A stretch of DNA of 64,000 bases from Gemmatimonadota bacterium (GTDB lineage: Bacteria > Gemmatimonadota > Gemmatimonadetes > Gemmatimonadales > GWC2-71-9), in NCBI GenBank assembly GCA_003169895.1, contig PNAE01000007.1, positions 1,135,222 to 1,199,221 of the forward strand, in the 5' to 3' direction. Within the stretch, counting starts at the first letter, position 1. Each line of letters starts with the position of its first letter. The position numbers and the translations under genes were made by a program. Below the pieces are notes generated by a model. That model did no database searches and was not told the origin of the DNA. It saw nothing but the letters and a program-made list of their open reading frames with translations. This document shows, piece after piece, positions 6,244-43,401 of this stretch.

Positions 6244-7359
6244 TCAGGCGCGTGCGAGCAGGCTATCGAGAATTCGCTCCGATGTGCGGCCGTCCCATAG
6301 TGGCGGGATACTTCCGAACCTGGCGTCGCCAGCAAGCACGCCGTCGATGTCCGCGGCCAGACTTTCCACGCTCGTCAGTTTGTTACTGCCGAGGGTCACG
6401 GTAACAGGGCGCTCCGTGTTGGGGCGGAGAGTAAGGCACGGCGTTCTGAAAAAAGTGCTCTCCTCCTGTAATCCCCCTGAATCCGTCAACACCAGCCGGG
6501 CGTTTTCCGCGAGCCAGAGTGAGTCGTGGTATCCGATCGGCTCGACGATCTTGAGGGAGACACTATCGTCGAACGCAACGCCGAACCGTCCGCACATCTT
6601 GCGGGTGCGAGGGTGCATCGGGAAAATCACTGGCAGGCGGTCGGAGAGTCGCTGCAGTTCGGCCATGATCGTCGTCAGCCTGCTCGCGTCATCCACGTTG
6701 GTGGGGCGGTGCAAGGTCACGTAGGCAAAGTCGCCGGCACGCACCCCGAGTCGGTGCGGCAGTGTGCTGGCGCGAGCCTGTTCCAGGTTAGCGACCAGTG
6801 CGTCGATCATCACATTCCCGACGAACTCGATCTTCGACTCGGGAATCCCCTCCCGTCTCAGGTTTTCGTTGGCGTCGGCCGAAGGAGTCAACAACAAGTC
6901 AGCCAACGCATCGGTTACCAAGCGGTTGACCTCCTCCGGCATCGTGCGGTCAAAACTCCGCAGACCTGCTTCCACATGCGCAATCCGGATTCCCATCTTG
7001 GCGCAGACCAGGCTGCAGGCCATGGTCGAGTTCACGTCGCCGACCACGACAACCCAGTCCGGCTTGTCCACCTCGCATAACGCCTCGAACTTCGTCATGA
7101 TGTCGGCGGTCTGGCGCGCGTGAGAGCCCGATCCCACGGCGAGGTTGACGTCGGGTGCCGGGATCCCGAGTTCGCTGAAAAAAACCGCGGACATCGCGTC
7201 GTCGTAGTGCTGACCCGTGTGGACGAGACGATACGCCAGCGCCGCGCCGGCGGGGCCGCTGCGACCCGTTCGAGTCCTGATGGTGCGGATGATCGGCGCG
7301 ACCTTCATGAAGTTCGGTCGGGCGCCAGCGACGAGGAGAAGCGTCAGAGGGGGCGTCAT
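6244..7359 (-). CDS. wecB: UDP-N-acetylglucosamine 2-epimerase (non-hydrolysing)
   Basis: LLLVAGARPNFMKVAPI, VHTGQHYD, HVEAGLRSFD and HPRT motifs across the full length. Confidence 0.9.
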   Translation of the reverse strand: MTPPLTLLLVAGARPNFMKVAPIIRTIRTRTGRSGPAGAALAYRLVHTGQHYDDAMSAVFFSELGIPAPDVNLAVGSGSHARQTADIMTKFEALCEVDKPDWVVVVGDVNSTMACSLVCAKMGIRIAHVEAGLRSFDRTMPEEVNRLVTDALADLLLTPSADANENLRREGIPESKIEFVGNVMIDALVANLEQARASTLPHRLGVRAGDFAYVTLHRPTNVDDASRLTTIMAELQRLSDRLPVIFPMHPRTRKMCGRFGVAFDDSVSLKIVEPIGYHDSLWLAENARLVLTDSGGLQEESTFFRTPCLTLRPNTERPVTVTLGSNKLTSVESLAADIDGVLAGDARFGSIPPLWDGRTSERILDSLLARA

Positions 7360-7500
7360 TTGAGAATTCTAGTCCAACGGGCCCGCTATCGGGTCCTCCC
7401 GAAACGCGGCCCCGCCGCGCGCGCGTTCGAACGCTCCCACGATCGACCGACAGATGACCGCCCCACGGACCCGCAGCCACCGTTTCGGTATGCCGCCCAC

Positions 7501-7530
7501 TTGCCCCCCATTCGCCGCCGAGACGATACT
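7501..7530 (+). promoter_or_regulatory. Promoter-like TTGCCC-N18-GATACT abutting the start codons of Uma2 copy 1
   Basis: TTGCCC 7501-7506, 18-nt spacer, GATACT 7525-7530, then ATGcccATG. The same architecture precedes all five copies and the mazE-like gene. Confidence 0.4.
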
Positions 7531-8082
7531 ATGCCCATGCCGCTCGCGAGCCACTACACCGCCGCCGCCGTGCGCGCGCTGCCCGACGACGGCAAGCGCT
7601 ACGAGACCGTCCACGGCGAGCTGCTGGTGACGCCGGCGCCGGGTGGACAACACCAGTTCATTCTCAACCGGCTGACCCTGGTCCTCAACCGGTATCTGGC
7701 GAGTCACGGCCTCGAAGAACTCCTCACCTCGCCCGCAGACATTTCGTTCGGTGAAGCCACGCTGGTGCAGCCCGATCTCTTCGTCGCTGACCTCACCCGG
7801 TTCAAGGAGACCTGGAACTGGGCCGACATCAGGACGCTATACCTGACCATCGAGATCGTGAGCCCGTCCAGCGCCAGGGCCGATCGCATCACCAAGCGCC
7901 GGCTCTATCAGGAACAGCGCATTCCAGCGTATTGGGTCGTGGACATCGACCAGCAGCACGTCGAAGTATGGGCGCCCGATGCGCGATTCCCGATCATCGA
8001 GCGTGAGCAGCTGACCTGGCGGCATCCGGCGCTCGACACGAGCTGCATGGTGGACCTGGTCAAGCTGTTCGGGCAGCATTGA
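7531..8082 (+). CDS. Uma2 family (DUF820) PD-(D/E)xK putative endonuclease, paralog 1 of 5
   Basis: ALPDDGKRYETVHGELLVTPAPGG, PDLFVAD, LTIEIVSPSS and TKRRLYQEQRIPAYWVVD match the Uma2 D...E.xS...K pattern. The track ORF (7120-) is over-extended upstream. Alternative start is the second ATG at 7537. Confidence 0.8.
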   Translation: MPMPLASHYTAAAVRALPDDGKRYETVHGELLVTPAPGGQHQFILNRLTLVLNRYLASHGLEELLTSPADISFGEATLVQPDLFVADLTRFKETWNWADIRTLYLTIEIVSPSSARADRITKRRLYQEQRIPAYWVVDIDQQHVEVWAPDARFPIIEREQLTWRHPALDTSCMVDLVKLFGQH

Positions 8083-8163
8083 CCCTTCGGCGCGCTCTTT
8101 CGTGCCGCGGCCGGCCGAGCGTACCTTGCATCGTATCGGCAGACCGCTGGTCGGAGACTGCCG

Positions 8164-8598
8164 ATGCCCGTGACCGCGAAACTTTCCCAGGCCTTCTACG
8201 ACCGTCTCGGCCACCAGGTGGCCGACGAGATGGTGGACTGGTTCAACCAGGTGGACGCTGCCAACCGTTCTGATCTGCGTGAGCTCAATGAGCTGAACTT
8301 CGCGCGCTTCGGCGCGACGCTCGAGCAGCGTGCGGCGGAGCTCTCCGCCAAGATGGAGCAGCGCTACGGCGACCTGTCGGCGAAGGTCGATCGATTTGCT
8401 GCGGAGCTGTCGGCGAAGATCGACCAGGTATCAGCGAACGTTGATCGGCAGATCGCTCAGCTGTCAGCGAGCGTGGATCGCCAGATCGCGGCTCTCGCGC
8501 TCACGGTCGAGCACCAGCAGGTGATCCAGATGCGGTGGATGATCGGGATGTGGGTGGTTGTGCTTGTCGCTGTGATGGGACTCTGGATCCGGCGCTAG
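8164..8598 (+). CDS. Tail-anchored coiled-coil membrane protein (DUF1640-like), copy 1
   Basis: GGAG 7 nt upstream of the ATG. Central 11-residue repeats (AAELSAKMEQR/YGDLSAKVDRF/AAELSAKIDQV/SANVDRQIAQL/SASVDRQIAAL). C-terminal TM RWMIGMWVVVLVAVMGLWIRR. Confidence 0.65.
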   Translation: MPVTAKLSQAFYDRLGHQVADEMVDWFNQVDAANRSDLRELNELNFARFGATLEQRAAELSAKMEQRYGDLSAKVDRFAAELSAKIDQVSANVDRQIAQLSASVDRQIAALALTVEHQQVIQMRWMIGMWVVVLVAVMGLWIRR

Positions 8599-8689
8599 TC
8601 CGGCGAGCGCGCGTTCGAATGATCCGCGCCCCAGCGAACTGATGATCCGGGCCGATCACGTGCGGCTACACTCGGCGCATGCGCCCCAC

Positions 8690-8719
8690 TTGCCCCCAAT
8701 TCGCCGCCGAGACGATACT
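8690..8719 (+). promoter_or_regulatory. Promoter-like TTGCCC-N18-GATACT, Uma2 copy 2
   Basis: TTGCCC 8690-8695, GATACT 8714-8719, then ATGtccATG. Confidence 0.4.
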
Positions 8720-9268
8720 ATGTCCATGCCGCTCACCAGCTATTTCACCGCTGACGCAGTGCGTGCCCTCCCCGACGACGGCAAGCGCTATGAGACCGTC
8801 CACGGCGAGCTGCTCATGACGCCGGCGCCGGGCGGGCAGCACCAACCCTTCCTCAGCGACCTCCACGTTATTCTCGGCTCCTATCTGGCGGCCAACGGCA
8901 TCAAGGGCGTCCTCGAGTCGCCGGCGGACATTTCGTTCGACGACGGCACCCTGGTGCAGCCTGATCTCTTCGTTGCGGACATCGCGGCGTTCCTGCGTTC
9001 CGGCGAGTGGAAGGACGTCCGGACGCTGTACCTGGTGGTTGAAGTTGTGAGCCAGTCCAGCGACACGTCCGATCGCGTCACCAAACGTCGGCTCTATCAG
9101 GAACATCGCATTCCGGAATACTGGGTCGTCGACATCGACCAGCATCAGGTCGAGGTGTGGACCCCTGACGCACTCTTCCCGGTCATCGAGCGCGAGCGGT
9201 TGGTATGGCGGCATCCGGCGCTTGAGGCCGACTGCACCGTGGATCTGGCGAAGCTGTTGTCACCCTGA
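8720..9268 (+). CDS. Uma2 family putative endonuclease, paralog 2 of 5 (C-terminus remodelled by a REP element)
   Basis: Same motifs as copy 1. It ends ...VDLAKLLSP* instead of ...VDLVKLFGQH*, because the last codons and the stop come from the repeat arm TTGTCACCCTGA. Confidence 0.8.
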   Translation: MSMPLTSYFTADAVRALPDDGKRYETVHGELLMTPAPGGQHQPFLSDLHVILGSYLAANGIKGVLESPADISFDDGTLVQPDLFVADIAAFLRSGEWKDVRTLYLVVEVVSQSSDTSDRVTKRRLYQEHRIPEYWVVDIDQHQVEVWTPDALFPVIERERLVWRHPALEADCTVDLAKLLSP

Positions 9269-9325
9269 GTGTGAGGGGCTGCGCTCAGGGTGACAAGCGT
9301 GTGAGGGCCTGCGCTCAGGGTGACA
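9257..9325. repeat. REP-like palindromic element (one forward arm, two reverse arms)
   Basis: ttgtcaccctgag / gtgtgaggggctgcgctcagggtgacaa / gcgtgtgagggcctgcgctcagggtgaca. Confidence 0.75.
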
Positions 9326-9413
9326 CGGTGGCGCGCGTTCGAACGATCCGCGCCCCTCCGAACCGGTGATCCGGGCCGATCACGTGCGGCTACACTCGGC
9401 GCATTCGCCCCAC

Positions 9414-9443
9414 TTGCCCACCTCTGTCCGCCGAGACGATACT
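9414..9443 (+). promoter_or_regulatory. Promoter-like TTGCCC-N18-GATACT, Uma2 copy 3
   Basis: TTGCCC 9414-9419, GATACT 9438-9443, then ATGtccATG. Confidence 0.4.
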
Positions 9444-9995
9444 ATGTCCATGCCGCTCACCAGCTATTTCACCGCTGACGCAGTGCGTGCCCTCCCCGAC
9501 GACGGCAAGCGCTATGAGACCGTCCACGGCGAGCTGCTCATGACGCCGGCGCCGGGCGGACAGCACCAACCTCTTCTCGGCGACCTGTACCTGGTGCTCG
9601 GCAACTATCTGGCCGCCAACGGTATCCGCGGACTGCTTTTCTCCCCTGCGGACATTTCTTTCGGCGATGATACGCTTGTCCAGCCGGACCTCTTCGTCGC
9701 CGACTGCGCGGCATTCTACCGGTCCGGCAACTGGTCCGACGTGCGGACGCTCCACTTGGTGGTGGAGATCATCTCCCGGTCGAGCGTGAAGGCGGATCGT
9801 ACTACCAAGCGTCGCCTGTATCAGGAACAGCGTATTCCAGCGTATTGGGTCGTGGACATCGATCAGCGCCAGGTCGAGGTGTGGACCCCCGACGCATTCT
9901 TCCCGGTCATCGAGCGTGAGCAGCTGACCTGGCGGCATCCGGCGCTCGACACGAGTTGCATGGTGGACCTGGTCAGGCTGTTCGGGCAGCATTGA
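9444..9995 (+). CDS. Uma2 family putative endonuclease, paralog 3 of 5
   Basis: N-terminal 43 aa identical to copy 2. The C-terminal tail and downstream spacer are as in copy 1. Confidence 0.8.
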   Translation: MSMPLTSYFTADAVRALPDDGKRYETVHGELLMTPAPGGQHQPLLGDLYLVLGNYLAANGIRGLLFSPADISFGDDTLVQPDLFVADCAAFYRSGNWSDVRTLHLVVEIISRSSVKADRTTKRRLYQEQRIPAYWVVDIDQRQVEVWTPDAFFPVIEREQLTWRHPALDTSCMVDLVRLFGQH

Positions 9996-10076
9996 CCCTT
10001 CGGCGCGCTCTTTCGTGCCGCGGCCGGCCGAGCGTACCTTGTATCGTATCGGCAGACCCCTGGTCGGAGACTGCCG

Positions 10077-10424
10077 ATGCCCGTGACCGCGAAACTTTCC
10101 CAGGCCTTCTACGACCGTCTCGGCCACCAGGTGGCCGACGAGATGGTGGACTGGTTCAATCAGGTGGACGCTGCCAACCGTTCTGATCTGCGTGAGCTCA
10201 ATGAGCTGAACTTCGCGCGCTTCGACGCGACGCTGAAGCAGCAACTCTCTGAGTTTTCGCGGGTGCTCGATTCTCGCCTCGCCGAGTTTTCTCGGGCCTT
10301 CGAACGCGAGCTCGCCAAACTCGCCATCGAGCTGAAGGATCAGCAAGTCATCCAGATGCGGTGGATGATCGGGGTGTGGTTGGTGGTGCTTGTCGCTGTG
10401 ATGGGACTCTGGATCCGGCGCTAG
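10077..10424 (+). CDS. Tail-anchored coiled-coil membrane protein (DUF1640-like), copy 2
   Basis: The first 49 aa and the C-terminal TM segment are near-identical to copy 1. The central coiled coil differs in sequence and is 29 aa shorter. Confidence 0.65.
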   Translation: MPVTAKLSQAFYDRLGHQVADEMVDWFNQVDAANRSDLRELNELNFARFDATLKQQLSEFSRVLDSRLAEFSRAFERELAKLAIELKDQQVIQMRWMIGVWLVVLVAVMGLWIRR

Positions 10425-10516
10425 TCCGGCGAGCGCGCGTTCGAACGCTCCCCACCATCGACCAACAGATGACCGGCTGTGCGGTCCCGCGGCCACCGTT
10501 CCGGCATGCCGCCTGC

Positions 10517-10546
10517 TTGCCTCCCGTTCGCCGCCGAGACGATACT
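10517..10546 (+). promoter_or_regulatory. Promoter-like TTGCCT-N18-GATACT, Uma2 copy 4
   Basis: TTGCCT 10517-10522, GATACT 10541-10546, then ATGcccATG. Confidence 0.4.
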
Positions 10547-11098
10547 ATGCCCATGCCGCTCGCGAGCCACTACACCGCCGACGCCGTGCGCGCGCTGCCC
10601 GACGACGGCAACCGCTACGAAACCGTCCACGGCGAGTTGCTAGTGACGCCGGCACCCGGTGGCCCGCATCAGCTGATGCTGTTTCGCCTGATCGCCATCG
10701 TGCAGCCCTATCTCGCGGCCGATGGCCTCGAGCAACTCCTTGGCGCGCCCGCGGATCTGTCATGGGGCGGGGATACGCTCACCCAGCCCGACCTCTTCGT
10801 GGCCGACCTCAGCGCGTTCCGGCGCTCCGGCAAGTGGGCCGACATCCGGACGGTCTATCTGGTGATCGAGATCGTGAGCCCGTCGAGCGCGAAGGCGGAT
10901 CGTACTACCAAGCGTCGCCTCTATCAGGAACAGCACGTTCCCGAATACTGGATCGTCGACATCGATCAGCGCCAGGTCGAGGTGTGGACCCCCGACGCAC
11001 TCTTCCCGATCATTGAGCGTGAGCAGCTGACCTGGCGGCATCCGGCGCTTGAGGCGGGCTGCGTGGTGGACCTGGTCAAGCTGTTCGGGCAGCATTGA
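10547..11098 (+). CDS. Uma2 family putative endonuclease, paralog 4 of 5
   Basis: Same motif set (PDLFVAD, IEIVSPSS, TKRRLYQEQ). Confidence 0.8.
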   Translation: MPMPLASHYTADAVRALPDDGNRYETVHGELLVTPAPGGPHQLMLFRLIAIVQPYLAADGLEQLLGAPADLSWGGDTLTQPDLFVADLSAFRRSGKWADIRTVYLVIEIVSPSSAKADRTTKRRLYQEQHVPEYWIVDIDQRQVEVWTPDALFPIIEREQLTWRHPALEAGCVVDLVKLFGQH

Positions 11099-11218
11099 CC
11101 CTTCGGCGCGCGCGTTCGTACCGCTAGCCCGGCGAGCGCGCGTTCGAACGCTCCCACCATCGACCAACAGATGACCGGCTGTGCGGTCCCGCGGCCACCG
11201 TTCCGGCATGCCGCCTGC

Positions 11219-11248
11219 TTGCCTCCTATTCGCCGCCGAGACGATACT
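11219..11248 (+). promoter_or_regulatory. Promoter-like TTGCCT-N18-GATACT, Uma2 copy 5
   Basis: TTGCCT 11219-11224, GATACT 11243-11248, then ATGtccATG. Confidence 0.4.
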
Positions 11249-11800
11249 ATGTCCATGCCGCTCGCGAACTACTACACTGCCGACGCCGTGCGCGCGCTGC
11301 CCGACGACGGCAACCGCTACGAGACCGTCCACGGCGAATTGCTGGTGACGCCGGCGCCGGGTGGGCGACACCAGTACGTTCTCGCGGAACTCTTTCGTGT
11401 CCTCGACGGGTACCTGGTCAGTCACGGAATCAAGGGGATCCTGTGGTCGCCCGCGGATATTTCCTTCGGCGACGACACGCTGGTGCAGCCCGACCTCTTC
11501 GTGGCCGACCTCGAAGCGTTCAGGCGCTCGGGCAAGTGGGCCGACATCCGCGCGCTCTACCTGACCATCGAGATCGTGAGCCCGTCCAGCGCCAGGGCCG
11601 ATCGGATCACCAAGCGTCGGCTCTATCAGGAACAGCGCATTCCCCAATACTGGGTCGTCGACATCGACCAGCAGCAGGTCGAAGTGTGGGCGCCCGATGC
11701 GCGATTCCCGATTATTGAGCGTGAGCAGCTGACATGGCGCCATCCGGCGCTTGACACGAGCTGCGTGGTGGACCTGGTCAAGCTGTTCGGGCAGCATTGA
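11249..11800 (+). CDS. Uma2 family putative endonuclease, paralog 5 of 5
   Basis: Same motif set. The C-terminal half is almost identical to copy 1. Confidence 0.8.
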   Translation: MSMPLANYYTADAVRALPDDGNRYETVHGELLVTPAPGGRHQYVLAELFRVLDGYLVSHGIKGILWSPADISFGDDTLVQPDLFVADLEAFRRSGKWADIRALYLTIEIVSPSSARADRITKRRLYQEQRIPQYWVVDIDQQQVEVWAPDARFPIIEREQLTWRHPALDTSCVVDLVKLFGQH

Positions 11801-11818
11801 CCCTTCGGCCTCACACTC

Positions 11819-11940
11819 TTGTCACCCTGAGCGAAGCGAAGGGGCGGAGTGATGACTTAGTACCAAGTTCCGCCCCTTCGCCTGCGGCTCAGGGTGACAA
11901 GGGCGCCACTCCGCCCCTTCGCCTGCGGCTCAGGGTGACA
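11819..11940. repeat. REP-like palindromic element (one forward arm, two reverse arms)
   Basis: cttgtcaccctgagcgaagcgaaggggcgg ... ccgccccttcgcctgcggctcagggtgacaa ... ccgccccttcgcctgcggctcagggtgaca. Confidence 0.8.
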
Positions 11941-11978
11941 CAAGCCATCCCCCGACGTCGCTAGACTTCCCTCCCCCC

Positions 11979-12767
11979 ATGCCCCTGACTCCAGCCCATG
12001 CTGCCGCGGCGCCGCTGCTGCACCGCCTGATCCGCCCATTGGGCCTCAGTATCCCGATCTCCGCCCTCGTCATCGGCACCATGACGCCGGACTTCGAGTA
12101 CCTTATTCGTCTCACTCCTGGTATTCGCGCCTGGCACACGCCGCTCGGGCTTCTGGAGTTCTGCTTACCTGTCGGCCTGGCGACGTGGTGGGTATTTCGT
12201 GTGATCATCGGCCCGGCGCTGCTGCGACTGCTACCGCCTGGGCTCGGCGCGGCGGCACGCGCGCAGATCGCGCCGGGATCGACATTCCGACTGATCCCCG
12301 GCGCAAGCGTCGCCGTCCTCCTCGGCGCCGTCAGTCACGACTTGTGGGACAGCTTCACGCATGAGGCAGGCTGGGGCGTCCATGAGATCCCTGCGCTCGA
12401 TGCCTCCGTCCCGCTCGGGGGAACCGGTGCAACGCCATGGTATTCGATCCTGCAGTACGGGAGTTCTGCTATCGGCCTGATTGTCATCATTGCCATCCTC
12501 TGGCAGTGGGTCGCGGCACACCCGAAGGCCGATCGCCACGTTCCGGTGGGCCAGCGGGCATGGCGCATCCGCGAACTGGGAGTGCTGCTGCTGGTGGGAG
12601 TGGCGGGAGCGGTACTCAATGCGTCGCGCGGCCGCCATTCCGGCCTCTCATGGACGCTCGGCCTGGCGGCGGTCGGGGGCATGTCGGCGCTCGCACTGGC
12701 GCTCCTGGCCTACGGGATTATCGATTCGATCCGTCACCGCGACGCACCGGCCCGCCGCGACGGCTGA
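11979..12767 (+). CDS. DUF4184-like integral membrane protein (putative metal-dependent hydrolase)
   Basis: N-terminus MPLTPAHAAAAPLL..., PDFEYLIR, later SHDLWDSFTH, and multiple TM segments, as I recall for DUF4184. Confidence 0.55.
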   Translation: MPLTPAHAAAAPLLHRLIRPLGLSIPISALVIGTMTPDFEYLIRLTPGIRAWHTPLGLLEFCLPVGLATWWVFRVIIGPALLRLLPPGLGAAARAQIAPGSTFRLIPGASVAVLLGAVSHDLWDSFTHEAGWGVHEIPALDASVPLGGTGATPWYSILQYGSSAIGLIVIIAILWQWVAAHPKADRHVPVGQRAWRIRELGVLLLVGVAGAVLNASRGRHSGLSWTLGLAAVGGMSALALALLAYGIIDSIRHRDAPARRDG

Positions 12768-12819
12768 CGACCAGGTCTCCTCGGATTGAGGCGCGGACAC
12801 CACGCGCTGCCTGAAGCGC

Positions 12820-21736: not shown

Positions 21737-22804
21737 ATGGATGCGCCCCCCGCAGCCCCTCCTGAAACCGCGGCGACAGCCGTGCTGGTGGTCGACGACG
21801 ATTCGCTCGTCCGCGAACTCCTGGTCCGGTTGCTCACCGCGCAGGGATACCGGGTCGCGGAGGCGGACGGCACGGACGCGGCGTTGGCACTGCTCGACCG
21901 CGACGGCGAGGTTCCGCTGGTGATCAGTGACCTCCACATGCCGGGCCGCGATGGACTCGAGTTGCTGCGCGAGGTACGGATCCGCTACCCCGACACGGCC
22001 ATGGTGATGCTCACCGGCGACGGTGATGTTGCCACGGCGGTGGAGTGCCTCAAGATCGGCGCGCGCGATTACCTGTCCAAACCGGTGCAGGTGCAGGAGG
22101 TTCGTGCCCGGATCGACAAGGCGCTGGCAGAGCGCCGGCTGGCGATCGAGATGCGGGAGTTGCGTGATAGCTATAACCGGGATCTCGAGCGGCAGGTGCA
22201 CGAACTGTCGCGCAAGAACCAGGGGATGTTCCTGGCCCAGGTCCAGATGGCGGTGACGATGCTCGAGGCGAAGGATTCGTACACGCGCGGTCATTCGCAC
22301 CGTGTCGCGGAGTACGCCGTCGCCACCGGGCGGGTGATGGGACTGGCGCCGGCGTTGCTGGAGCAACTGCGCCTTGGGGGCGAGTTGCACGACATCGGCA
22401 AGATCGGCACTCGCGATGCCGTCCTCCACAAGCCCGGTCCGCTCGACGACGAGGAGTTTGCCGAGATTCGCCGGCACACACTGGAAGGCGAGGCGATGCT
22501 GAGCCTGTTGCGCGCCGATAATCCCGAGGTCCTGCACATCGTGCGTTGGCACCACGAACGGCTTGACGGCACCGGCTTCCCCGATGGACTGCTTGCGAAC
22601 CAGATTCCGATGACCGCGCGCATAGTCTCCGTTGTCGATGCCTTCGACGCGATGACGACCAATCGCGCCTATCGGGCCCAGCTGGTGGCCGAGGTCGCGA
22701 TCGGCGAATTGCAGCGGTGTGCGGGAAACCAGTTTGACCCCGCGGTAGTGGCGGCGTTTCGCTCGACATTTCCCGATCCCAACGCGTTGCCGAGCCGGGT
22801 ATGA
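21737..22804 (+). CDS. Response regulator with HD-GYP phosphodiesterase output domain
   Basis: Receiver VLVVDDD...VISDLHMPG...MLTG...LSKP, then HSHRVAEY, GELHDIGKIG and HHERLDGTGFP. Confidence 0.88.
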   Translation: MDAPPAAPPETAATAVLVVDDDSLVRELLVRLLTAQGYRVAEADGTDAALALLDRDGEVPLVISDLHMPGRDGLELLREVRIRYPDTAMVMLTGDGDVATAVECLKIGARDYLSKPVQVQEVRARIDKALAERRLAIEMRELRDSYNRDLERQVHELSRKNQGMFLAQVQMAVTMLEAKDSYTRGHSHRVAEYAVATGRVMGLAPALLEQLRLGGELHDIGKIGTRDAVLHKPGPLDDEEFAEIRRHTLEGEAMLSLLRADNPEVLHIVRWHHERLDGTGFPDGLLANQIPMTARIVSVVDAFDAMTTNRAYRAQLVAEVAIGELQRCAGNQFDPAVVAAFRSTFPDPNALPSRV

Positions 22805-30629: not shown

Positions 30630-31183
30630 CGAGCCGCGACCAGCGCGTAGCTACCGGCTGCCGCCACCGGGAAGCGCACGACGTCGGCCGCCGGGCGCAC
30701 GCCGCCGATGAATTGCACCTTGTTGGCTGCACCGAGTTCTGCCGGCGCGAGTGCCTGCTCGAACTTTCCCGCCGACGGATACTTCACGCTGGCCCCGGCG
30801 GGTGCCCGGAAATGGACCGCATACGAAAAGGTCGCGCTGGAGTTGCCGGGCAGCTTGTCCGTGGTGACGAGTTCAAACGCATACGTGCCCGCGACCGGGT
30901 GCACACGGACGTGGACGCTATCACGGGCGTGCATCGTGTCGGTCGCGGCGGGGAAATCCAGGATCAGGAAGATCGCGTCGTCGGGAGGCGCGTGGCGCAA
31001 CACAATCGTGCGCCCGGTCGTTGCGGCGAACGTGACGGACGTATCCGGTACCGGCGCGCCGGACGCTTCGAGCAGCCACACCTTGTCGAGCGTCGTTGCC
31101 GATGCCGGCGCGATGGTGGCTGAGGCCGGCGTGGCGGATAGATCGGCGCGGCTGCTGTGGCATGCCGCCCCGAGCCCCAGCAT
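30626..31183 (-). CDS. Hypothetical lipoprotein
   Basis: MLGLGAAC lipobox-like start. 185 aa with normal composition and high GC3. ATGA overlap with the trpE start. It is the only credible part of the 909-aa track ORF. Confidence 0.55.
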   Translation of the reverse strand: MLGLGAACHSSRADLSATPASATIAPASATTLDKVWLLEASGAPVPDTSVTFAATTGRTIVLRHAPPDDAIFLILDFPAATDTMHARDSVHVRVHPVAGTYAFELVTTDKLPGNSSATFSYAVHFRAPAGASVKYPSAGKFEQALAPAELGAANKVQFIGGVRPAADVVRFPVAAAGSYALVAAR

Positions 31184-31207
31184 GAGCGTGGCCCCTATCT
31201 TCCCGAT

Positions 31208-33217
31208 ATGTCCCGCGCCGTGCCCTGGACCCTTCTGCTGCTGGTCGTCGCGGGCCGCGCCGGCGCCCAGGTGTGGCGGTCGGGCACCGAGATCGACCTG
31301 ATCCGGCGCGCGGTCGCGCACCGCGCCGCCCGCGATGCGGACACCGTGCTGGCCGGTTGGGAGGCACAGGCTCACGGGATGCTGCGATACATCTCGGTCG
31401 TGGATCACGGGGACGGTCCGGTGGAACGGGTCATCAGGGCAGACGAGTTGCAGGTCGAAGTGTACGGGGAGTCCCCGAATCGGAGCAAGCAGATCATCCT
31501 GGCGTGGCGGGACACGTCGTTCCTTCCCAATCGCATCGACTATCATCGCGACCACCTCGGCATCGTCGCCAACGACTTCGGTCCGACCATCCGATTGGGA
31601 CAGGGCGAGGAAGTCCGCGACGTACCGCACCCGCTGTCGGATGCCGGCCTGACCGCGTACCAGTTCGCGCTGGGCGACACGTTGACGCTGAGCACGCCGA
31701 AGGGCCGCATCCGGGTCGTGTCGATCCAGGTCCGGCCAAGGGACCCGGATTCGGCCGGGACCATCGGGACCTTGTACCTGGACCTGGATCGCGCCGCGCT
31801 GGTGCGCTTCCGGTTCACCTTCACACCCGCTTCCTATCGCGATCCTACGGTGGAGGAGATCACCGTCGCACTCGACAACTCGCTGCAGCAGAACGCGCGA
31901 TGGTTGCCGTGGCGGCAATCCATCGTCATCCGGCGCGGCTTGCCGCTGCTCGATTTTCCGATCCGCACCGTGATCCGCGCCGAATGGACCATCGACGACT
32001 ACCGTCTCGGCGCGCGCCAACCCACGAGCCGTTTTGATGGCCCCTTCATCGACGGGCCCCGCGCCCCGCAACCGGGCGGAAGCTGGGACGCGCCGATGGC
32101 GGGTGACCTGCACGCGGTACCCGCCAGCAATGCCGACCTCGCGGCTGCGGAGCGTGATGCATCCCAGGCGCTTGGAGCTCGCCTGCTTGATGGATTGCCT
32201 CGCTTGCGGTTTCTCGCAACCGGCATCAGCGACTTTGTCCGGGTCAACCGCGTCGAGGGTGTGACGCTGGGATTGGGCGGACGGCTCGCTGTGGGCGATC
32301 TCCTCGTGACGAGCGGGCATGTGGGGCTCGGTTTCAGCGATCACCGCGTTGTCGGGACGATTGCGCTGTCTGGACCAGCCGGACATTCGCGCTGGTCGAT
32401 CACCGGTGAACGCGCCATGCGCGACGTGGCGGACATACCGGTCATCAGCGGCATCGCCAACTCGCTCGGCACGGCGGTTTCGGGCCAGGACTATGGCGAC
32501 TACACGCTGATCGAGCGGGTCACCGCAGCGTTGCACGCCACGGTCGGGGGCAGTCGCGCCGCGGTCGAAGCGGGCGAAGAGTGGTCCTGGTCCGTCGCGA
32601 CGGCATTCAATCCGCTGACTGGATCTGCCGCGGCCAACCCGGCGCTGGGCGTTGGCGCGTCGACCGTGGTACGGGCCACGCTGGCACGGGGCGATCCGGC
32701 CGGAGCGGGCTGGTCGGTCGACGTCGAAGGCGGCACTGGTGTCAGCCAATGGGGCCGGATGCACTCGAGCGTCCGAGGTCGGATCGCGCTCCCATCGGGC
32801 GAATTGCAGGTCACCGGCGATGTCGGCCTCGGCACCGCCGACCTGCCGGGATATCGCGACTTCGTCCTCGGGGGCCGTGGCACGCTGCTCGGCGTGCCGT
32901 TCCGGGCACTTGGCGGCCGTCGGATGCTCCGTGGCGAGTTGGCCTGGGCGCTTCCGCTCAGGGTGCCGACGCCACCAGTTCCCTACGCGCGCTATGTCCG
33001 GTTGCCCAGCACGGTGGCACCATTCCTCGCCGCCGGGATCGCTGGCGGCGATCAGGCGGACCTGCCTTGGCGGGCAACCGGTAGGATCGAGCCGGTCGCC
33101 GGACTGCGGCTCGATCTGTGGGGACCGCTGTTGCGGGTTGAGGCCGGCATGGCGCTGCGGACCGGACGCCTGGCACTGGCTATCGACGTCCATCCGGATT
33201 GGTGGGCAACGATGTGA
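31208..33217 (+). CDS. Hypothetical secreted protein with an outer-membrane beta-barrel-like C-terminus
   Basis: Signal MSRAVPWTLLLLVVAGRAGAQ. The C-terminal third has alternating strands ending ...RLALAIDVHPDWWATM. No specific family recognised. Confidence 0.55.
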   Translation: MSRAVPWTLLLLVVAGRAGAQVWRSGTEIDLIRRAVAHRAARDADTVLAGWEAQAHGMLRYISVVDHGDGPVERVIRADELQVEVYGESPNRSKQIILAWRDTSFLPNRIDYHRDHLGIVANDFGPTIRLGQGEEVRDVPHPLSDAGLTAYQFALGDTLTLSTPKGRIRVVSIQVRPRDPDSAGTIGTLYLDLDRAALVRFRFTFTPASYRDPTVEEITVALDNSLQQNARWLPWRQSIVIRRGLPLLDFPIRTVIRAEWTIDDYRLGARQPTSRFDGPFIDGPRAPQPGGSWDAPMAGDLHAVPASNADLAAAERDASQALGARLLDGLPRLRFLATGISDFVRVNRVEGVTLGLGGRLAVGDLLVTSGHVGLGFSDHRVVGTIALSGPAGHSRWSITGERAMRDVADIPVISGIANSLGTAVSGQDYGDYTLIERVTAALHATVGGSRAAVEAGEEWSWSVATAFNPLTGSAAANPALGVGASTVVRATLARGDPAGAGWSVDVEGGTGVSQWGRMHSSVRGRIALPSGELQVTGDVGLGTADLPGYRDFVLGGRGTLLGVPFRALGGRRMLRGELAWALPLRVPTPPVPYARYVRLPSTVAPFLAAGIAGGDQADLPWRATGRIEPVAGLRLDLWGPLLRVEAGMALRTGRLALAIDVHPDWWATM

Positions 33218-33331: not shown

Positions 33332-35632
33332 GTGGCACCTGTGCCGAATTATCAAGACGAATGGTTGGCGGCCGTCCTCGGTCCGCTCATTCCAGAAGCC
33401 AAGCTGGCTCGGCTCAAGGACGACACTGAGTCGAAGACGTCACTGTGGGAACGGATCATCGATGCGCGGCTCCTGACCCAGGCCGAGGTCCTCGATGCAG
33501 TTTCCGCCCGGTGCAAGCTGCCGATCGCGAATCTCGAGCTCGCTGGCGAAAGCGGCCGCGACGCATTGCCGGAGCAGCTGGCACGCCGGCACGCCGTGGT
33601 GCCACTCACCGTCACCGACGCGGTGCTCGAGGTGGCCACCAGCAATCCTTTCGACATTGGTGCGGAGCAGGCGCTGGCCTTCGCCACCGGACGCGAAGTG
33701 CGCATGTTGCTCGCGTCGCCGCCCCGGATTCGCGAACGCCTCGACATCCTGTACGGCAGCGCGCAACGCGGCGGCAGTGTCAAGGACATCCTCGGTGGGA
33801 TGGAGGATGTCGACGTTACCGAGCTCCCCGATGCGCAGGACGAGCTCGACGCCGAAGCCGCGGCGGCCGAGGCGAGTTCCCGGCCGATCATCAAGCTGGT
33901 CGACGTGTTATTGGCCGACGGCATCACCAGCCGGGCAAGCGATATCCATATTGAATCCGGCGAGGCGGTGGTGGTCATTCGCTACCGCATCGACGGTGTG
34001 CTGCGGCACGCCATGACGATCCCACGCAAGGCCGGCACGCCGCTGATCTCTCGCATCAAGATCATGTCGGGGCTCGACATCGCCGATCGCCTGCGGCCGC
34101 AGGACGGCCGCGCGCGCGTCGCGGTGAACGGCAATCCCGTCGACCTGCGCATCTCCACGCTTCCCGCAACGCACGGCGAAAAGGTCGTCATCCGTATCCT
34201 GAACACGCAGTCGACCATGCTGTCGCTCGAGGCGCTCGGCCTGTTCGAGGACGAGCAAGCCATCATCAAGAAGCTGCTCAACAGCAAGGAAGGGATCATC
34301 CTCTGCACCGGACCGACCGGTTCGGGCAAGACGACGACGCTGTACTCCTGTATTCGCATGATCGAAGGCGAAGGGGTCAACATCGTCACGGTGGAGGATC
34401 CGGTCGAGTACCGGCTTGGCAAGAACGTCGTACAAGTGCAGACCAACGAGAAAACCGGCCTCACCTTTGCCGCGGCGCTGCGATCGATCCTGCGCCAGGA
34501 CCCGGACATCGTGCTGGTGGGCGAGATCCGCGACATCGAGACCGCCCAGGTGGCAGTGCAGGCGTCGCTCACGGGCCACCTCGTGCTGTCCACGTTGCAC
34601 ACGAACGACGCTCCGAATACGGTCACGCGTCTGGTGGACATGGGACTCGAGGCGTTCAAGATCGGCGCGGCGTTGCGGGGCATCATTGCGCAGCGGCTGA
34701 TGCGCCGCATCTGTCCCGTGTGCCGTGAGAAGCAGCCGCTGAGCGAGCTCCCCGAGCGGTTGCGCAAGTGGGTGCCCGAAGGAGCTACGCTCTGGAAGGC
34801 TATCGGTTGCAGCCAATGCACCCAGACGGGGTATCGCGGCCGGTTCTCGGTGGTCGAAATCCTGGTGATGAACCCCGAAATCGAGCGACTCGTCGGCAAC
34901 AACGGCAACGCCGATGTCATCGCGGTGGCGGCGCGGGCGGCCGGCATGCGGTCGCTGTTTGAGTGCGGGCTCGCGCACCTGCTCGAGGGCCATACCACGG
35001 TCGACGAACTGCTTCGCGTCACCGACGTACCACAGGCACCGGAAGGTGCCGTCAAGGCGAAGGGGAAGTCGAAGGACAAGGCGAAGGGCCGCGCGGGCAC
35101 GACCGGTAACAGCACCCCGGTGGAACCGGCGACCGACGTCGAGACCACCGCCGAGCAAAGCGAGGATGAGCTGTTCGCGGGGATCGAGCTGGTTGATGAG
35201 TCGGACGGGCCGACCGAGCCCGCCGCCGCCGGATCGCGCGCGACGATCCTGCTGGTCGAGGACGAGGACTCACTCCGCCGCGTGATGAAGGACCTGCTGC
35301 AACAGGAAGGCTACGTGATCTGCGAGGCGCGCGACGGTGCCGAGGCCATGGAACAGGTGGACCGCCATAATCCCGATCTCGTGCTGCTCGACCTCAACCT
35401 GCCCAACGTTGATGGTTACACCGTCCTGCAACGGCTCCGGTCCCACCCGCGCACCCAGAACCTCCCGGTCATCATCCTCTCGGCACGAGGCGACGAGGAC
35501 AACGAAGTGAAAGTCCTGCGTCTCGGTGCCACCGATTTCCTCGCCAAGCCGTTCCGGCCGCGCGCGCTGTCGGCGCGGCTCGAAGCGACGCTGGCCAGAA
35601 GCAGGGCGGAAGAGGTCAAAGGTGAGAGGTGA
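33332..35632 (+). CDS. GspE/PilB-family secretion ATPase fused to a C-terminal response-regulator receiver domain
   Basis: T2SSE_N-like N-domain. Walker A CTGPTGSGKTTTLY, Asp/His boxes (VGEIRD, LVLSTLHTNDA), and a tetracysteine CPVC...CSQC. An about 85-aa charged linker, then REC (LLVEDED, LVLLDLNLP, IILSARG, LAKPF) at 35240-35629. Confidence 0.85.
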   Translation: MAPVPNYQDEWLAAVLGPLIPEAKLARLKDDTESKTSLWERIIDARLLTQAEVLDAVSARCKLPIANLELAGESGRDALPEQLARRHAVVPLTVTDAVLEVATSNPFDIGAEQALAFATGREVRMLLASPPRIRERLDILYGSAQRGGSVKDILGGMEDVDVTELPDAQDELDAEAAAAEASSRPIIKLVDVLLADGITSRASDIHIESGEAVVVIRYRIDGVLRHAMTIPRKAGTPLISRIKIMSGLDIADRLRPQDGRARVAVNGNPVDLRISTLPATHGEKVVIRILNTQSTMLSLEALGLFEDEQAIIKKLLNSKEGIILCTGPTGSGKTTTLYSCIRMIEGEGVNIVTVEDPVEYRLGKNVVQVQTNEKTGLTFAAALRSILRQDPDIVLVGEIRDIETAQVAVQASLTGHLVLSTLHTNDAPNTVTRLVDMGLEAFKIGAALRGIIAQRLMRRICPVCREKQPLSELPERLRKWVPEGATLWKAIGCSQCTQTGYRGRFSVVEILVMNPEIERLVGNNGNADVIAVAARAAGMRSLFECGLAHLLEGHTTVDELLRVTDVPQAPEGAVKAKGKSKDKAKGRAGTTGNSTPVEPATDVETTAEQSEDELFAGIELVDESDGPTEPAAAGSRATILLVEDEDSLRRVMKDLLQQEGYVICEARDGAEAMEQVDRHNPDLVLLDLNLPNVDGYTVLQRLRSHPRTQNLPVIILSARGDEDNEVKVLRLGATDFLAKPFRPRALSARLEATLARSRAEEVKGER

Positions 35633-35674
35633 GAGGTGAGCGGTGAAAGGTGACACCTTTCACCTCTATCTCTC
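35612..35674. repeat. Tandem-heptamer hairpin filling the GspE-REC / NUDIX intergenic space
   Basis: (GGTGAGA)x2 GGTGAGC GGTGAAA GGTG a CACCTTTCACC tctatctctc. The core is a perfect 11-bp stem at 35642-35664. Confidence 0.7.
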
Positions 35675-36160
35675 ATGACCACCATCCGCACAGCGCTCGT
35701 CGATGTCTACGTCCTGCGCGGGCGGGGTGAAACGCTCGAGGCGCTGCTGCTGCGCCGCGCCCGCGATCAGGTCCGCGGCGGGACGTGGGAGGCGGTACAC
35801 GGCAAGATCGACGGCGGCGAGACGCCGGTCGCGGCGGCGCGGCGCGAGCTGCGCGAGGAAATCGGCTGCGAGCCCCTGGCGTTGTACAACCTGAGCCGGG
35901 TCGAGCAGTTCTACCTGCACCACGACGACGAGATCGCGCTGGTTCCGGTCTTCGTCGCGTTCGTTGCGGCTGATGCGGTGATCCGCCTCAGCGACGAGCA
36001 CGACACGCTGCTCTGGCTCTCACCCGAAGCGGCCACGGCGCAGTGCACGTGGCCGCGCGCGGCGCGGGCGCTGGAGGATGCGGTCCGGATGCTCGGCACG
36101 GGCAACGCTGGACTGCTGGAGGAGATCCTGCGGATCCCGCCACCGCCTCTTCCAGATTGA
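35675..36160 (+). CDS. NUDIX hydrolase
   Basis: NUDIX box GKIDGGETPVAAARRELREEIG. Confidence 0.85.
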   Translation: MTTIRTALVDVYVLRGRGETLEALLLRRARDQVRGGTWEAVHGKIDGGETPVAAARRELREEIGCEPLALYNLSRVEQFYLHHDDEIALVPVFVAFVAADAVIRLSDEHDTLLWLSPEAATAQCTWPRAARALEDAVRMLGTGNAGLLEEILRIPPPPLPD

Positions 36161-36279: not shown

Positions 36280-37605
36280 ATGGACGTTCGCCACTGGACG
36301 ATCACCGTATTCGCCGCCACCGTGAGCCTTGCGGCGCCGCATTGTCGCGCGGCGGCCCAGGCCTCGGTGATCGATCGCCTGACGAAGGCCGCGCAGGATG
36401 CGGCCAACGCGGGCAAGAAGGCCGTGGCCCAGGAGGTCAATCGGCAGGTCAACAGCGCCGTGGAGGCGGCCGCCGAGCAGGACGTGGCCGACGGGAGCTT
36501 CATCGCGGTGCTGTCGCCGTGGAGTTCCAGCGACGGCACCAAACGGGTGGAGTTGGCGAGGTATTCCGGGGCGGCATTCGTCGTGACCGGCGCGACTGGG
36601 CGCCAGATCGTGGTCTGTGACACCAAGGGCGTGCTGCCGTGGCAAGTGACATTCAACGTCCAGAACAGTCCCGGCGCCGGCGGAGCGACCGGAGCCGCGA
36701 CCGGAGGGACGGCGCTCGCTGGGCGGGGCGGCGGGACGGCGCTCACTGGGCGGGGCGGCGGCGCCGCGCCGTCGGGCCGTGGTGGCACCGGTGCCACCGG
36801 TGCCCCGTCCACCGGGAGTCGCGGCGGAGCGCCACCGGCGAACGGTGGCGGCGGCACATCGGCGCGAGGTGGCGGTGGCACATCGGCGCGAGGTGGCGGT
36901 GGCACATCGGCGCGAGGCGGCGGCTCGCCGGCGGGGAGAGGCGGCGCGGCGGATACTTCGTCGTCAAGAGGTGGCGGGGCTGCTCCCGCCAAGACCGAAT
37001 CGGCCCCATCGGCAAACCAGCGGGACTACCGGTTTCCGTCCAACCAGGTGACCGTCACCCTCCCGACAGTGGGTGCCCGCAGCGGCAACCCGAGCCAGGG
37101 ATCGCTCCGAGTCGGAGATATTTCAGAAACGGTGCTCGCGGGTGCGGCGAAGATCCGGTTCGCGCAGGCGACGTTGCCCGGGCAGGCGGGGCCGCAAGTC
37201 GTCGACTTTGGCGTCGCATTCAAGGCAAGGGTCCTGCCGTCGGGCGAGGCGCCCGTGGGGTGCCTGGCGCCAACTGCCGGCAGGGGCACGCTGGCCGGTC
37301 CGAGTCCGGCCGGCAGAGGCAGCGCTACCGCCGGCCGTGGCGGCACCGCCAACCCGGCGACGAATCCGTCGCCTGCAGCCGTGCCCAATCCCGGTCCGAC
37401 GTTCGCCGCGGGTGATATCCTGACGCCGAAGATCGACAACGTGAAAATGCTCGCCGAGGCGAAGGACAGCGCCAAGGTCGCCACCACAGTCAAGAAGGGC
37501 GATGAACTCGTCTATCTTGGCGACGAGCAGAACGGGTTCGAACACGTGCAGAGCGCGACTGGGGAAGGTTGGGTCAAGAAGGTGCTGGTGATGAAGCACC
37601 CCTGA
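36280..37605 (+). CDS. Secreted protein with Gly/Arg-rich repeats and a C-terminal SH3b-like domain
   Basis: Signal ...VSLAAPHCRAAAQA. GRGGG-type repeats. C-terminal KMLAEAKDSAKVATTVKKGDELVYLGDEQNGFEHVQSATGEGWVKK resembles bacterial SH3. Confidence 0.65.
   Translation: MDVRHWTITVFAATVSLAAPHCRAAAQASVIDRLTKAAQDAANAGKKAVAQEVNRQVNSAVEAAAEQDVADGSFIAVLSPWSSSDGTKRVELARYSGAAFVVTGATGRQIVVCDTKGVLPWQVTFNVQNSPGAGGATGAATGGTALAGRGGGTALTGRGGGAAPSGRGGTGATGAPSTGSRGGAPPANGGGGTSARGGGGTSARGGGGTSARGGGSPAGRGGAADTSSSRGGGAAPAKTESAPSANQRDYRFPSNQVTVTLPTVGARSGNPSQGSLRVGDISETVLAGAAKIRFAQATLPGQAGPQVVDFGVAFKARVLPSGEAPVGCLAPTAGRGTLAGPSPAGRGSATAGRGGTANPATNPSPAAVPNPGPTFAAGDILTPKIDNVKMLAEAKDSAKVATTVKKGDELVYLGDEQNGFEHVQSATGEGWVKKVLVMKHP
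36844..36915 (+). repeat. Near-perfect 24-nt tandem repeat x3 inside the CDS (GGGGTSAR x3)
   Basis: ggtggcggYggcacatcggcgcga repeated three times head to tail. Confidence 0.9.
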
Positions 37606-43011: not shown

Positions 43012-43401
43012 ATGGCCCGAATCCTTCTGGTTGACGATGACGCGTCCGTGCGCCGGGTGGTGCGGTTGACATTCGAACGCGGCGGATACACGGTCATCGA
43101 GGCGTCATCGGCGTTCGAGGCGCTCGGCATGCTGCGGGGCGACGAATTGCCCGACGCCGTAGTGTGTGACGTCCTGATGCCGGGCATGACCGGGTTGCAG
43201 TTCTACCGGCATCTCGCCGAGCGGGCGCCGAGGTTGCGCCATCGGGTCGTGTTCCTCACCGGCGCGAACCAGGATCCCGACGTGCATCGTCCGATCGAGC
43301 AACTCGGCGTTCCGCTGCTTGGCAAGCTCGGCGACCTCCGGCTGGTGCTCGACGCCGTGCGCATCGCCCTGTTGCGGCCGGACCACGCCGATCCGCCCTG
43401 A
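43012..43401 (+). CDS. Stand-alone response-regulator receiver (CheY-like)
   Basis: ILLVDDD, AVVCDVLMPGMTG, VVFLTG. Confidence 0.85.
   Translation: MARILLVDDDASVRRVVRLTFERGGYTVIEASSAFEALGMLRGDELPDAVVCDVLMPGMTGLQFYRHLAERAPRLRHRVVFLTGANQDPDVHRPIEQLGVPLLGKLGDLRLVLDAVRIALLRPDHADPP

Follow-up and report, generated by a model that had tools for sequence, protein, structure and literature searches.

Which machine is powered by a type IV filament-class motor whose gene stands apart from the usual machine genes? The question is raised by a gene in a 64-kb stretch of a Gemmatimonadota genome (contig PNAE01000007.1, positions 1,135,222 to 1,199,221; the whole stretch is referred to here as the window), which encodes a PilB/GspE-type secretion ATPase carrying a phospho-receiver domain (REC) at its C terminus. 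Judged from its sequence and predicted structure, the protein is a catalytically competent and predicted hexameric ATPase of the PilB family, to which the receiver is tethered by a disordered linker of ~65 residues. We consider it fairly probable that it acts as a phospho-regulated assembly motor for type IV filaments, with both the machine and the kinase encoded elsewhere in the genome.

The identity of the motor was examined by Pfam searches, motif scans and an alignment of 100 Gemmatimonadales homologues (40–90% identity). In what follows, Pfam ranges refer to the 766-residue open reading frame (ORF), while motifs and single residues are numbered on the 763-residue form. Three domains were recognized in the ORF: MshEN at residues 79–145 (E = 1.6e-13, 50.8 bits), T2SSE (PF00437) at 181–562 (E = 2.4e-129; 431.6 bits, cut-off 24.9) and Response_reg (PF00072) at 639–750 (E = 2.4e-34; 118.3 bits, cut-off 30.2). 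A first-pass annotation of this DNA had described a T2SSE_N-like domain, a complete ATPase core and a tetracysteine, and every motif that it quoted was recovered (Table 1). Across the 100 homologues, there is little or no variation at the catalytic, zinc-binding and REC phospho-acceptor positions, and all four cysteines of the zinc module are invariant. The motifs, the N2 and RecA-like C-terminal domains and the predicted fold place the protein in the PilT/GspE secretion ATPase superfamily. Within it, the zinc tetracysteine and the N1E domain assign it, at the level of sequence, to the assembly-type (PilB/GspE) clade and not to the PilT retraction ATPases; PilT models reach just 182 bits, whereas those for PilB and GspE give more than 519. 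The AlphaFold model is also confident over the N-terminal region (residues 4–140). MshEN domains that bind cyclic di-GMP (c-di-GMP) carry two tandem copies of the motif RLGxx(L/V/I)(L/V/I)xxG(L/V/I)(L/V/I)xxxxLxxxLxxQ, separated by a 5-residue spacer (PMC7288161, PMC5013675). Sensing of c-di-GMP by the window protein was rejected on motif grounds, as the tandem arrangement is absent under both strict and relaxed definitions and the sole copy, SLWERIIDARLLTQAEVLDAVSAR, is degenerate (R>S, G>W, G>R, Q>R).

The receiver is canonical by CheY-like, two-component standards and, from its sequence and model, apparently phosphorylatable. As had been proposed for it, all phospho-acceptor features are in place and conserved: the acidic pocket (E640/D641), the predicted phospho-acceptor D684, S714 of the ILSARG motif and K736-P737 of AKPF. 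In the AlphaFold monomer, computed from the 100-sequence alignment, the N-terminal domains, the ATPase core and the REC are all confidently predicted (mean predicted local distance difference test score, pLDDT, 83.4; predicted template-modeling score, pTM, 0.52). Between core and receiver, the pLDDT falls to 31–39 with no secondary structure (below 50 over residues 569–592 and 597–631). The linker was previously put at about 85 residues; the unstructured part is shorter, ~63–75 residues, with the T2SSE domain ending at about residue 560 and the REC starting at about 634. In subfamily A, the Gemmatimonadales group to which the window protein belongs, this otherwise variable segment holds an acidic/hydrophobic motif, ELFAGIELVDE, in which L617 is invariant and E616 nearly so. 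The motif is not conserved as such in a second group, subfamily B, and may be a docking peptide.

To see how far this design extends, 1.84 billion representative sequences (50%-identity clusters) were searched exhaustively with HMMER, and the best 150 matches were classified using local hidden Markov models built from the family alignment. About 115 of these 150 representatives have the order (N1E)-ATPase-REC with the receiver C-terminal, in a ranking that is biased toward fusions because the REC adds to the score. More than 100 mutually diverged clusters share the ATPase-REC design, and members are found in Gemmatimonadales/Gemmatimonadota (subfamilies A and B), in Calditrichota, including Caldithrix abyssi and a complete genome, and in one cluster with a member from Zixibacteria. 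Among the 115 fused representatives, the phospho-accepting Asp is kept in 105, the Thr/Ser in 110 and the Lys in 107. A scan of GTDB species genomes further detected the fused ORF in 32 species, all of them Gemmatimonadales/Gemmatimonadota metagenome-assembled genomes. The domain-architecture search suggested by the first-pass annotation thus recovered a widespread class combining T2SSE with a C-terminal REC, and the combination, which had been called unusual, is not rare but typical of whole clades. Common as it is, it is not characterized: no description of a PilB/GspE-REC fusion was found in the open-access literature, including a 2024 review of PilB regulation (PMC11656802), and the nearest label is the automatic JGI product name 'PilB-like protein/CheY-like'.

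REC-tailed PilBs are a large, old and so far undescribed class, which is proposed here and is not a curated family; the window protein has all of its defining parts, namely N1E, the T2SSE core, a variable linker and a canonical C-terminal REC. A and B come out as sister groups in a rough neighbor-joining tree of the ATPase cores that carries no support values. The REC fusion looks ancestral to both, since the REC-tailed proteins of Calditrichota and Zixibacteria fall outside them. The search also returned other layouts. Fourteen representatives of ~1000 residues are tandem T2SSE-T2SSE proteins with two complete cores per polypeptide (P0127, P0129, P0130, P0132 and others), P0134 ends in three successive RECs, and in P0220 and P0222 the REC is N-terminal in place of C-terminal. 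P0156 and P0165 have a double zinc ribbon between ATPase and REC and 400–750 extra C-terminal residues with no Pfam match, a group to which P0175 is assigned by length only.

The connection to pili comes from relatives that lie beside the expected genes. P0142, which is 38% identical to the window protein and has the same three domains, represents a Calditrichota family and heads a complete operon for a type IVa-like pilus. Downstream of it are genes for a prepilin peptidase, T2SSF, three N_methyl pilins, PilM, PilO, a weak T2SSC match, a secretin and a PilT-like ATPase, and the whole operon directly follows an exopolysaccharide export cluster. Members of subfamily B (P0131 family, 42–46% identical; L011 3317–6990) are followed by a stand-alone REC, a hypothetical protein and a true prepilin (MTRRRG/FTFIEILVV), and another fused homologue, P0217, comes after TadE/Tad-type genes. 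Type IV pilus genes have been reported in Gemmatimonadota of all environments except marine (PMC10581226).

We infer from these data that the ATPase-REC protein is phosphorylated, that this affects the motor and that subfamily A works for a filament machine whose genes lie elsewhere in the genome. D684 would be phosphorylated by a histidine kinase, possibly of CheA type, that is not linked to the ATPase gene. The phosphorylated REC would then shift its contacts, either by dimerizing with RECs of neighboring subunits or by binding to or releasing the ATPase or the machine, perhaps assisted by the conserved acidic linker motif. Pilus or pseudopilus assembly would in this way be switched on or off, through ATPase activity or through engagement of the PilM/PilC platform. 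By analogy, such a protein would be the built-in (cis) counterpart of the control that free response regulators exert over PilB in cyanobacteria and Pseudomonas.

The genes that do surround the ATPase are of another kind. Their order is glmM, glmS, dtd, maf, a chorismate-binding enzyme, a hypothetical gene, a DUF5686-like gene, the ATPase-REC gene and a NUDIX hydrolase gene, followed by clpX, clpP and tig, and this housekeeping synteny is kept in 21–25 of the 32 loci. A homologue of the DUF5686-like gene is present in 24 of the 32, as well as near a NUDIX-fused orthologue described below; it is a syntenic neighbor by position only. The NUDIX gene, overlooked in the first-pass annotation, is the sole conserved partner. 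It lies directly downstream of the ATPase (+3 to +158 nucleotides, nt) in the window and in 11 species. In a second arrangement, the ATPase-REC gene heads a tightly packed string of hisC, hisB, hisH, NUDIX and hisA, which is complete in seven loci (L007, L008, L019, L023, L026, L032 and L034), with hisC beginning 0–55 nt after the ATPase; one further locus has the his genes without a NUDIX match, and four are cut by contig ends. The ATPase stop codon and the his start overlap in L026 and in the truncated L036. In eight species, neither NUDIX nor his genes were found within 5.6–10 kb.

The association extends to true fusions. P0137 and P0144, both 48% identical to the window ATPase, are MshEN-T2SSE-NUDIX proteins in which a C-terminal NUDIX domain replaces the REC, and P0518 is fused likewise. 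The NUDIX part aligns over its full length with the window NUDIX protein (36–45% identity), and the fusion was assembled independently from two samples (P0144/P0518; L059 10001–12259). Because its neighbors are the same (the DUF5686-like gene, the chorismate-binding enzyme, maf and dtd), the fused protein is a positional orthologue of the window ATPase, and in the rough tree mentioned above the NUDIX fusions group with subfamily A, apart from B. The link between ATPase and NUDIX is thus conserved, and the NUDIX protein could be either a true functional partner or a histidine-pathway enzyme stranded there by a rearrangement. By annotation, the NUDIX protein of the window is assigned to no equivalog and is a generic enzyme of the MutT/NudB-like kind. 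As a speculation, the NUDIX encoded between hisH and hisA is a candidate for a non-orthologous pyrophosphatase of the histidine pathway.

Two further candidates at the ATPase/NUDIX junction were discarded. An apparent ATPase-REC-NUDIX triple fusion in L042 proved to be two ORFs, 15 nt apart, in the ORF listing. A strong hairpin at the junction in the window (Table 1) coincides with a tandem repeat of AGAGGTG (period 7, 6.1 copies by Tandem Repeats Finder, window 35611..35676) that gives the protein a short, strain-specific C-terminal extension; as a regulatory element it was rejected, being not conserved in 10 other loci of the same arrangement. A different palindrome is present at this junction in L012.

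Several observations weigh against a pilus motor, the first of them being its isolation. Called genes were surveyed with Pfam over 8.4–64 kb of the window, and the first 8 kb were scanned separately. No T2SSF/PilC, PilM/N/O, secretin, prepilin peptidase or N_methyl pilin was found in the 64 kb, and the search for a histidine kinase (HisKA/HATPase_c, CheA) in the same stretch yielded no candidate. Class III signal peptides were sought in all six frames, with two matches, both in response-regulator genes and without a hydrophobic tail. The claim that the window holds no platform protein, pilin, secretin or kinase was therefore borne out by both kinds of scan, and the isolation that it implied holds beyond the window. 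Probing of 512 kb around the orthologues in 32 species (within ~10 kb of the gene) by tblastn with nine Calditrichota machine proteins detected no machine gene; these probes are distant, so that divergent pilins or PilO could escape them, while T2SSF and secretin should show. The PilT-like probe matched only the ATPase gene itself. The context that marks a PilB of type IVa pili (T4aP), with pilC, pilM–Q, pilins and prepilin peptidase alongside, is accordingly missing from the window and from ~10 kb around the gene in the 32 species. With the machine probes empty and the synteny retained, the orphan state is a conserved feature of the whole order. Because no machine component lies near the gene, the pilus link depends on homologues that are 38–46% identical.

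The remaining points of this kind concern the protein, its relatives and the model. The ATPase falls below the NCBI equivalog cut-offs for both PilB (TIGR02538, 519.3 bits against 675.65) and GspE (TIGR02533, 539.7 against 630.25; NF007755, 439 against 617), although its TIGR02538 and TIGR02533 matches run end to end; having missed both, it is a standard member of neither family. A REC-less positional orthologue with a fused NUDIX (P0144/P0518) would not be expected of a pilus motor, nor would the tight packing of many orthologues at the head of a his operon. Subfamily B, with its neighboring pilin gene, would be the more obvious candidate for the pilus motor in any genome that carried both A and B. 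Finally, the AlphaFold monomer gives the REC no docked position (pTM 0.52, linker pLDDT ~35), and since the placement of the REC is undefined and the linker disordered, the proposed coupling has no structural support from the model.

The main alternative is that subfamily A is a repurposed paralogue, a phospho-regulated hexameric ATPase working away from filaments, with NUDIX and possibly the his-operon genes, in nucleotide-linked housekeeping or signaling, while pili are left to subfamily B or another PilB. Its orphan position is conserved in 32 species within a housekeeping block (glmS, dtd, maf, the chorismate-binding enzyme and the DUF5686-like gene), the NUDIX gene follows it directly or lies inside a his string, REC-less ATPase-NUDIX fusions from two independent samples share the same synteny and fall with A in the rough tree, and it is subfamily B that adjoins a prepilin. 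We nevertheless regard this alternative as unlikely, if worth keeping in view. The elements of an assembly motor are kept and invariant in the protein, namely the N1E domain that binds GspL/PilM, the zinc module and the catalytic residues. Orphan position by itself is weak evidence because scattered pilus genes are common in bacteria, and the NUDIX adjacency may be historical, stemming from a histidine-pathway enzyme. No genome holding both A and B was found among the matches listed, in which the two share no large contigs and no neighboring GenBank accessions. No ATPase of the PilB/GspE clade is known to have a machine-independent role, which we have counted against repurposing. A sharper version, slightly less likely again, gives subfamily A no part in powering pili or secretion and makes it a PilB-derived, phospho-gated hexameric ATPase, cut loose from the filament machinery, that forms a module with the NUDIX enzyme. 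The latter, encoded next door, in the his operon or in the same polypeptide according to lineage, might for example control or respond to a nucleotide pool or signal. If true, this would give assembly-type secretion ATPases their first function outside a machine.

Another possibility is that the window ATPase acts as GspE in a type II secretion system whose genes lie elsewhere, in which case phosphorylation would gate secretion. The best NCBIfam match is indeed the GspE model TIGR02533 over its full length, GspE-GspL complexes head the Foldseek list by E-value (488 columns aligned to 4pht), and the Calditrichota operon includes the weak T2SSC match. However, the GspE score is below its equivalog cut-off and a mere 20 bits over that for PilB. 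Among solved structures, a sequence search ranked the PilBs of Myxococcus xanthus (400 bits, residues 29–559) and Geobacter (395) over EpsE/GspE (361, from residue 161) and Thermus PilF (341), and by Foldseek the core superimposes on Geobacter PilB (5tsg/5tsh) with TM scores of 0.88–0.89 and a root-mean-square deviation of 2.7–3.1 Å. The N-terminal 75 residues resemble the N-terminal extension of PilB/MshE and are unmatched in solved GspE chains. In addition, the operons of homologues hold PilM, PilO and a PilT-like retraction ATPase, which are hallmarks of pili, and no gsp genes are present in the window or within ~10 kb of the orthologues in 32 species. A GspE identity is accordingly improbable.

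Last, the idea that the fusion is spurious, an ATPase gene and an independent response-regulator gene having been run together by a frameshift or assembly error, to which one product out of frame at the REC boundary (P0106, 690 residues) and another stopping partway through the REC (P0108, 700 residues) might seem to point, deserves practically no credence and is ruled out by recurrence: the identical 763-residue product (P0001) is called on at least 24 contigs from independent assemblies, the fusion is found in the 32 species and again in more than 110 clusters at 90% identity, the G+C content at third codon positions (0.83) is uniform along the ORF and typical of genuine genes in a window of ~66% G+C, and the REC is under strong purifying selection. 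The possibility of such an artefact had been raised at the outset, and the fusion is genuine. The two exceptions, a frameshift on a 412-kb contig (P0106) and a truncated REC on a 1.05-Mb contig (P0108), both in alignment columns ~660–800, are sequencing errors or rare natural losses of the REC. As to its extent, the 766-residue frame first proposed (33332..35632) exists in the ORF listing, but the GTG at 33341 is the likelier start, because the database copy has 763 residues and the N termini of homologues share the pattern M-x-x-[YF]-N-D-E-W.

Table 1. Positions of the ATPase-REC gene, its parts and its immediate neighbors in the window (residue numbers on the 763-residue form).
Feature	Position	Strand	Residues or product	Basis and remarks
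DUF5686-like gene	31157..33217	+	669–686 aa	Upstream of the ATPase gene, 123-nt gap; Pfam PF18939 30.6 bits, below cut-off
REC-tailed PilB/GspE-type ATPase gene	33341..35632	+	763 aa	In-frame GTG at 33332 would give 766 aa
Degenerate MshEN-like 24-residue motif, single	33440..33511	+	34–57	Regular-expression scan; motif definition from PMC7288161, PMC5013675
N1E/MshEN domain (PF05157)	33566..33766	+		Pfam; contacts GspL/PilM in homologues
T2SSE ATPase core (N2 and C-terminal domain)	33872..35017	+		Pfam, Foldseek
Walker A, GPTGSGKT	34310..34333	+	324–331	Motif scan; invariant in 100-homologue alignment
Asp box, EDPVE	34394..34408	+	352–356	Motif scan; invariant in 100-homologue alignment
Walker B, IVLVGEIRD	34508..34534	+	390–398	Motif scan; E395, R397 and D398 invariant
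His box, TLHTN	34592..34606	+	418–422	Motif scan; invariant
Tetracysteine zinc-binding module, CPVC and CSQC	34712..34819	+	458–461 and 490–493 (C458, C461, C490, C493)	Motif scan
Disordered charged linker	35045..35233	+	569–631	AlphaFold; gappy alignment, sequence and length vary among homologues
Acidic/hydrophobic linker motif, ELFAGIELVDE	35168..35200	+	610–620	Homologue alignment; predicted disordered
Receiver (Response_reg) domain	35246..35581	+		Pfam; pLDDT 88–97, (beta-alpha)5 pattern
Predicted phospho-acceptor (LLDLNLP)	35390..35392	+	D684	Invariant in 100 Gemmatimonadales homologues
Hairpin on 7-nt tandem repeat	35622..35676	+		Last codons, stop and gap to the NUDIX ATG; -32.6 kcal/mol, z score -5.9
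NUDIX hydrolase gene	35675..36160	+	161 aa	Pfam; canonical Nudix box; starts 42 nt after the ATPase gene

Some other genes of the window were noted in passing. A response regulator with an HD/HD-GYP-type domain is encoded 11 kb upstream of the ATPase (21737..22804, + strand); its best NCBIfam match, the model 'response regulator c-di-GMP phosphodiesterase, NosR family', scores 221.8 bits and so falls short of the cut-off (400). A stand-alone receiver of 129 residues (43012..43401, +) is encoded beside the trigger factor gene and divergently from it, near clpP/clpX, and is kept in the closest relatives with no kinase nearby. The gene at 36280..37605 (+) encodes a Gly-rich protein of 441 residues with GGGTSARGG-type repeats and a weak C-terminal match to SH3_3; its length, 433 residues in L001 and 441 in L002–L004, assemblies that are otherwise identical, suggests a polymorphism in repeat number. 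Uma2-family (putative restriction endonuclease-like) paralogues occupy ~7100..12800, four of them called in L006 (16011–20726), with a further Uma2-bearing ORF at 7120..8082; the cluster adjoins a PemK-type toxin with a small upstream gene.

How signaling controls the extension motors of type IV pili, whether in switching them on and off or between poles, is an open problem. The known regulators are separate entities (PilG/PilH, PixG/PixH, PilZ-FimX and c-di-GMP), and how they contact PilB is for the most part undefined. A natural and widespread PilB with a tethered canonical receiver offers a self-contained system in which phospho-control can be studied biochemically and structurally, and the tethered receiver may be the main mode of regulation in the poorly studied phyla Gemmatimonadota, Calditrichota and Zixibacteria. 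The link between ATPase and NUDIX, including the true fusions, could reflect either a novel input to the motor or a novel function of this class of ATPase. For annotation, the 'orphan' PilB-like genes of Gemmatimonadales are conserved orthologues and not debris.

Compared with the T4aP PilBs (M. xanthus 3jc8; Geobacter metallireducens 5tsg/5tsh/6olj), the window ATPase has the same order of N1 (MshEN-type), N2 and C-terminal domains, the same Walker A and B motifs, Asp and His boxes and tetracysteine zinc site, and 44% identity over the core. It differs in its C-terminal linker and receiver, absent from all solved or described PilBs, in a gene position that is not beside pilC/pilM–Q/pilT, in its score under the TIGR02538 cut-off and in lacking the c-di-GMP-binding MshEN motifs that M. 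xanthus PilB has (PMC11656802). GspE/EpsE (Vibrio 1p9r, 4ksr, 4pht) has an equivalent core, N1E domain and zinc module (45% identity over the core), whereas the window ATPase has ~75 extra N-terminal residues and the C-terminal REC, no gsp neighbors and a score under the TIGR02533 cut-off. With the MshE-type motors (Vibrio cholerae MshE, PA14_29490), it shares the N-terminal MshEN family and the principle of a regulatory module built into the motor (PMC5013675); unlike them, it is without tandem motifs, and its input would come through phosphorylation at the other end of the chain.

Closest in principle are the systems in which a CheY-like receiver governs the extension motor or its localization, namely the PATAN-REC proteins PixG, PixH and TaxP1 of Synechocystis and PilG/PilH of Pseudomonas aeruginosa. 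Direct action of response regulators on PilB is established in Synechocystis (bioRxiv 10.1101/2021.06.11.447907; PMC11181946), and in P. aeruginosa they are implicated indirectly (PMC11656802). Those regulators are separate proteins with a chemosensory kinase encoded nearby, while the window receiver is tethered, has no PATAN domain and no linked kinase. In Tad pili, TadZ/CpaE also joins a receiver-like domain to an ATPase of a type IV filament system, one of the ParA/MinD type (bioRxiv 10.64898/2026.07.08.737194). It is not a motor of the secretion superfamily, and its receiver is N-terminal, atypical and for localization, in contrast to the canonical receiver on the motor described here. The P0142 family, including Caldithrix abyssi, and subfamily B have the identical MshEN-T2SSE-REC architecture and canonical receiver residues at 38–46% identity, but they adjoin pilus genes (an operon in L009, a REC and a prepilin in L011), whereas the loci of subfamily A are linked to NUDIX instead. 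What is new is thus an uncharacterized, REC-tailed variant of a well-known motor family, the most intriguing aspects of which are its order-wide orphan position and its association with NUDIX.

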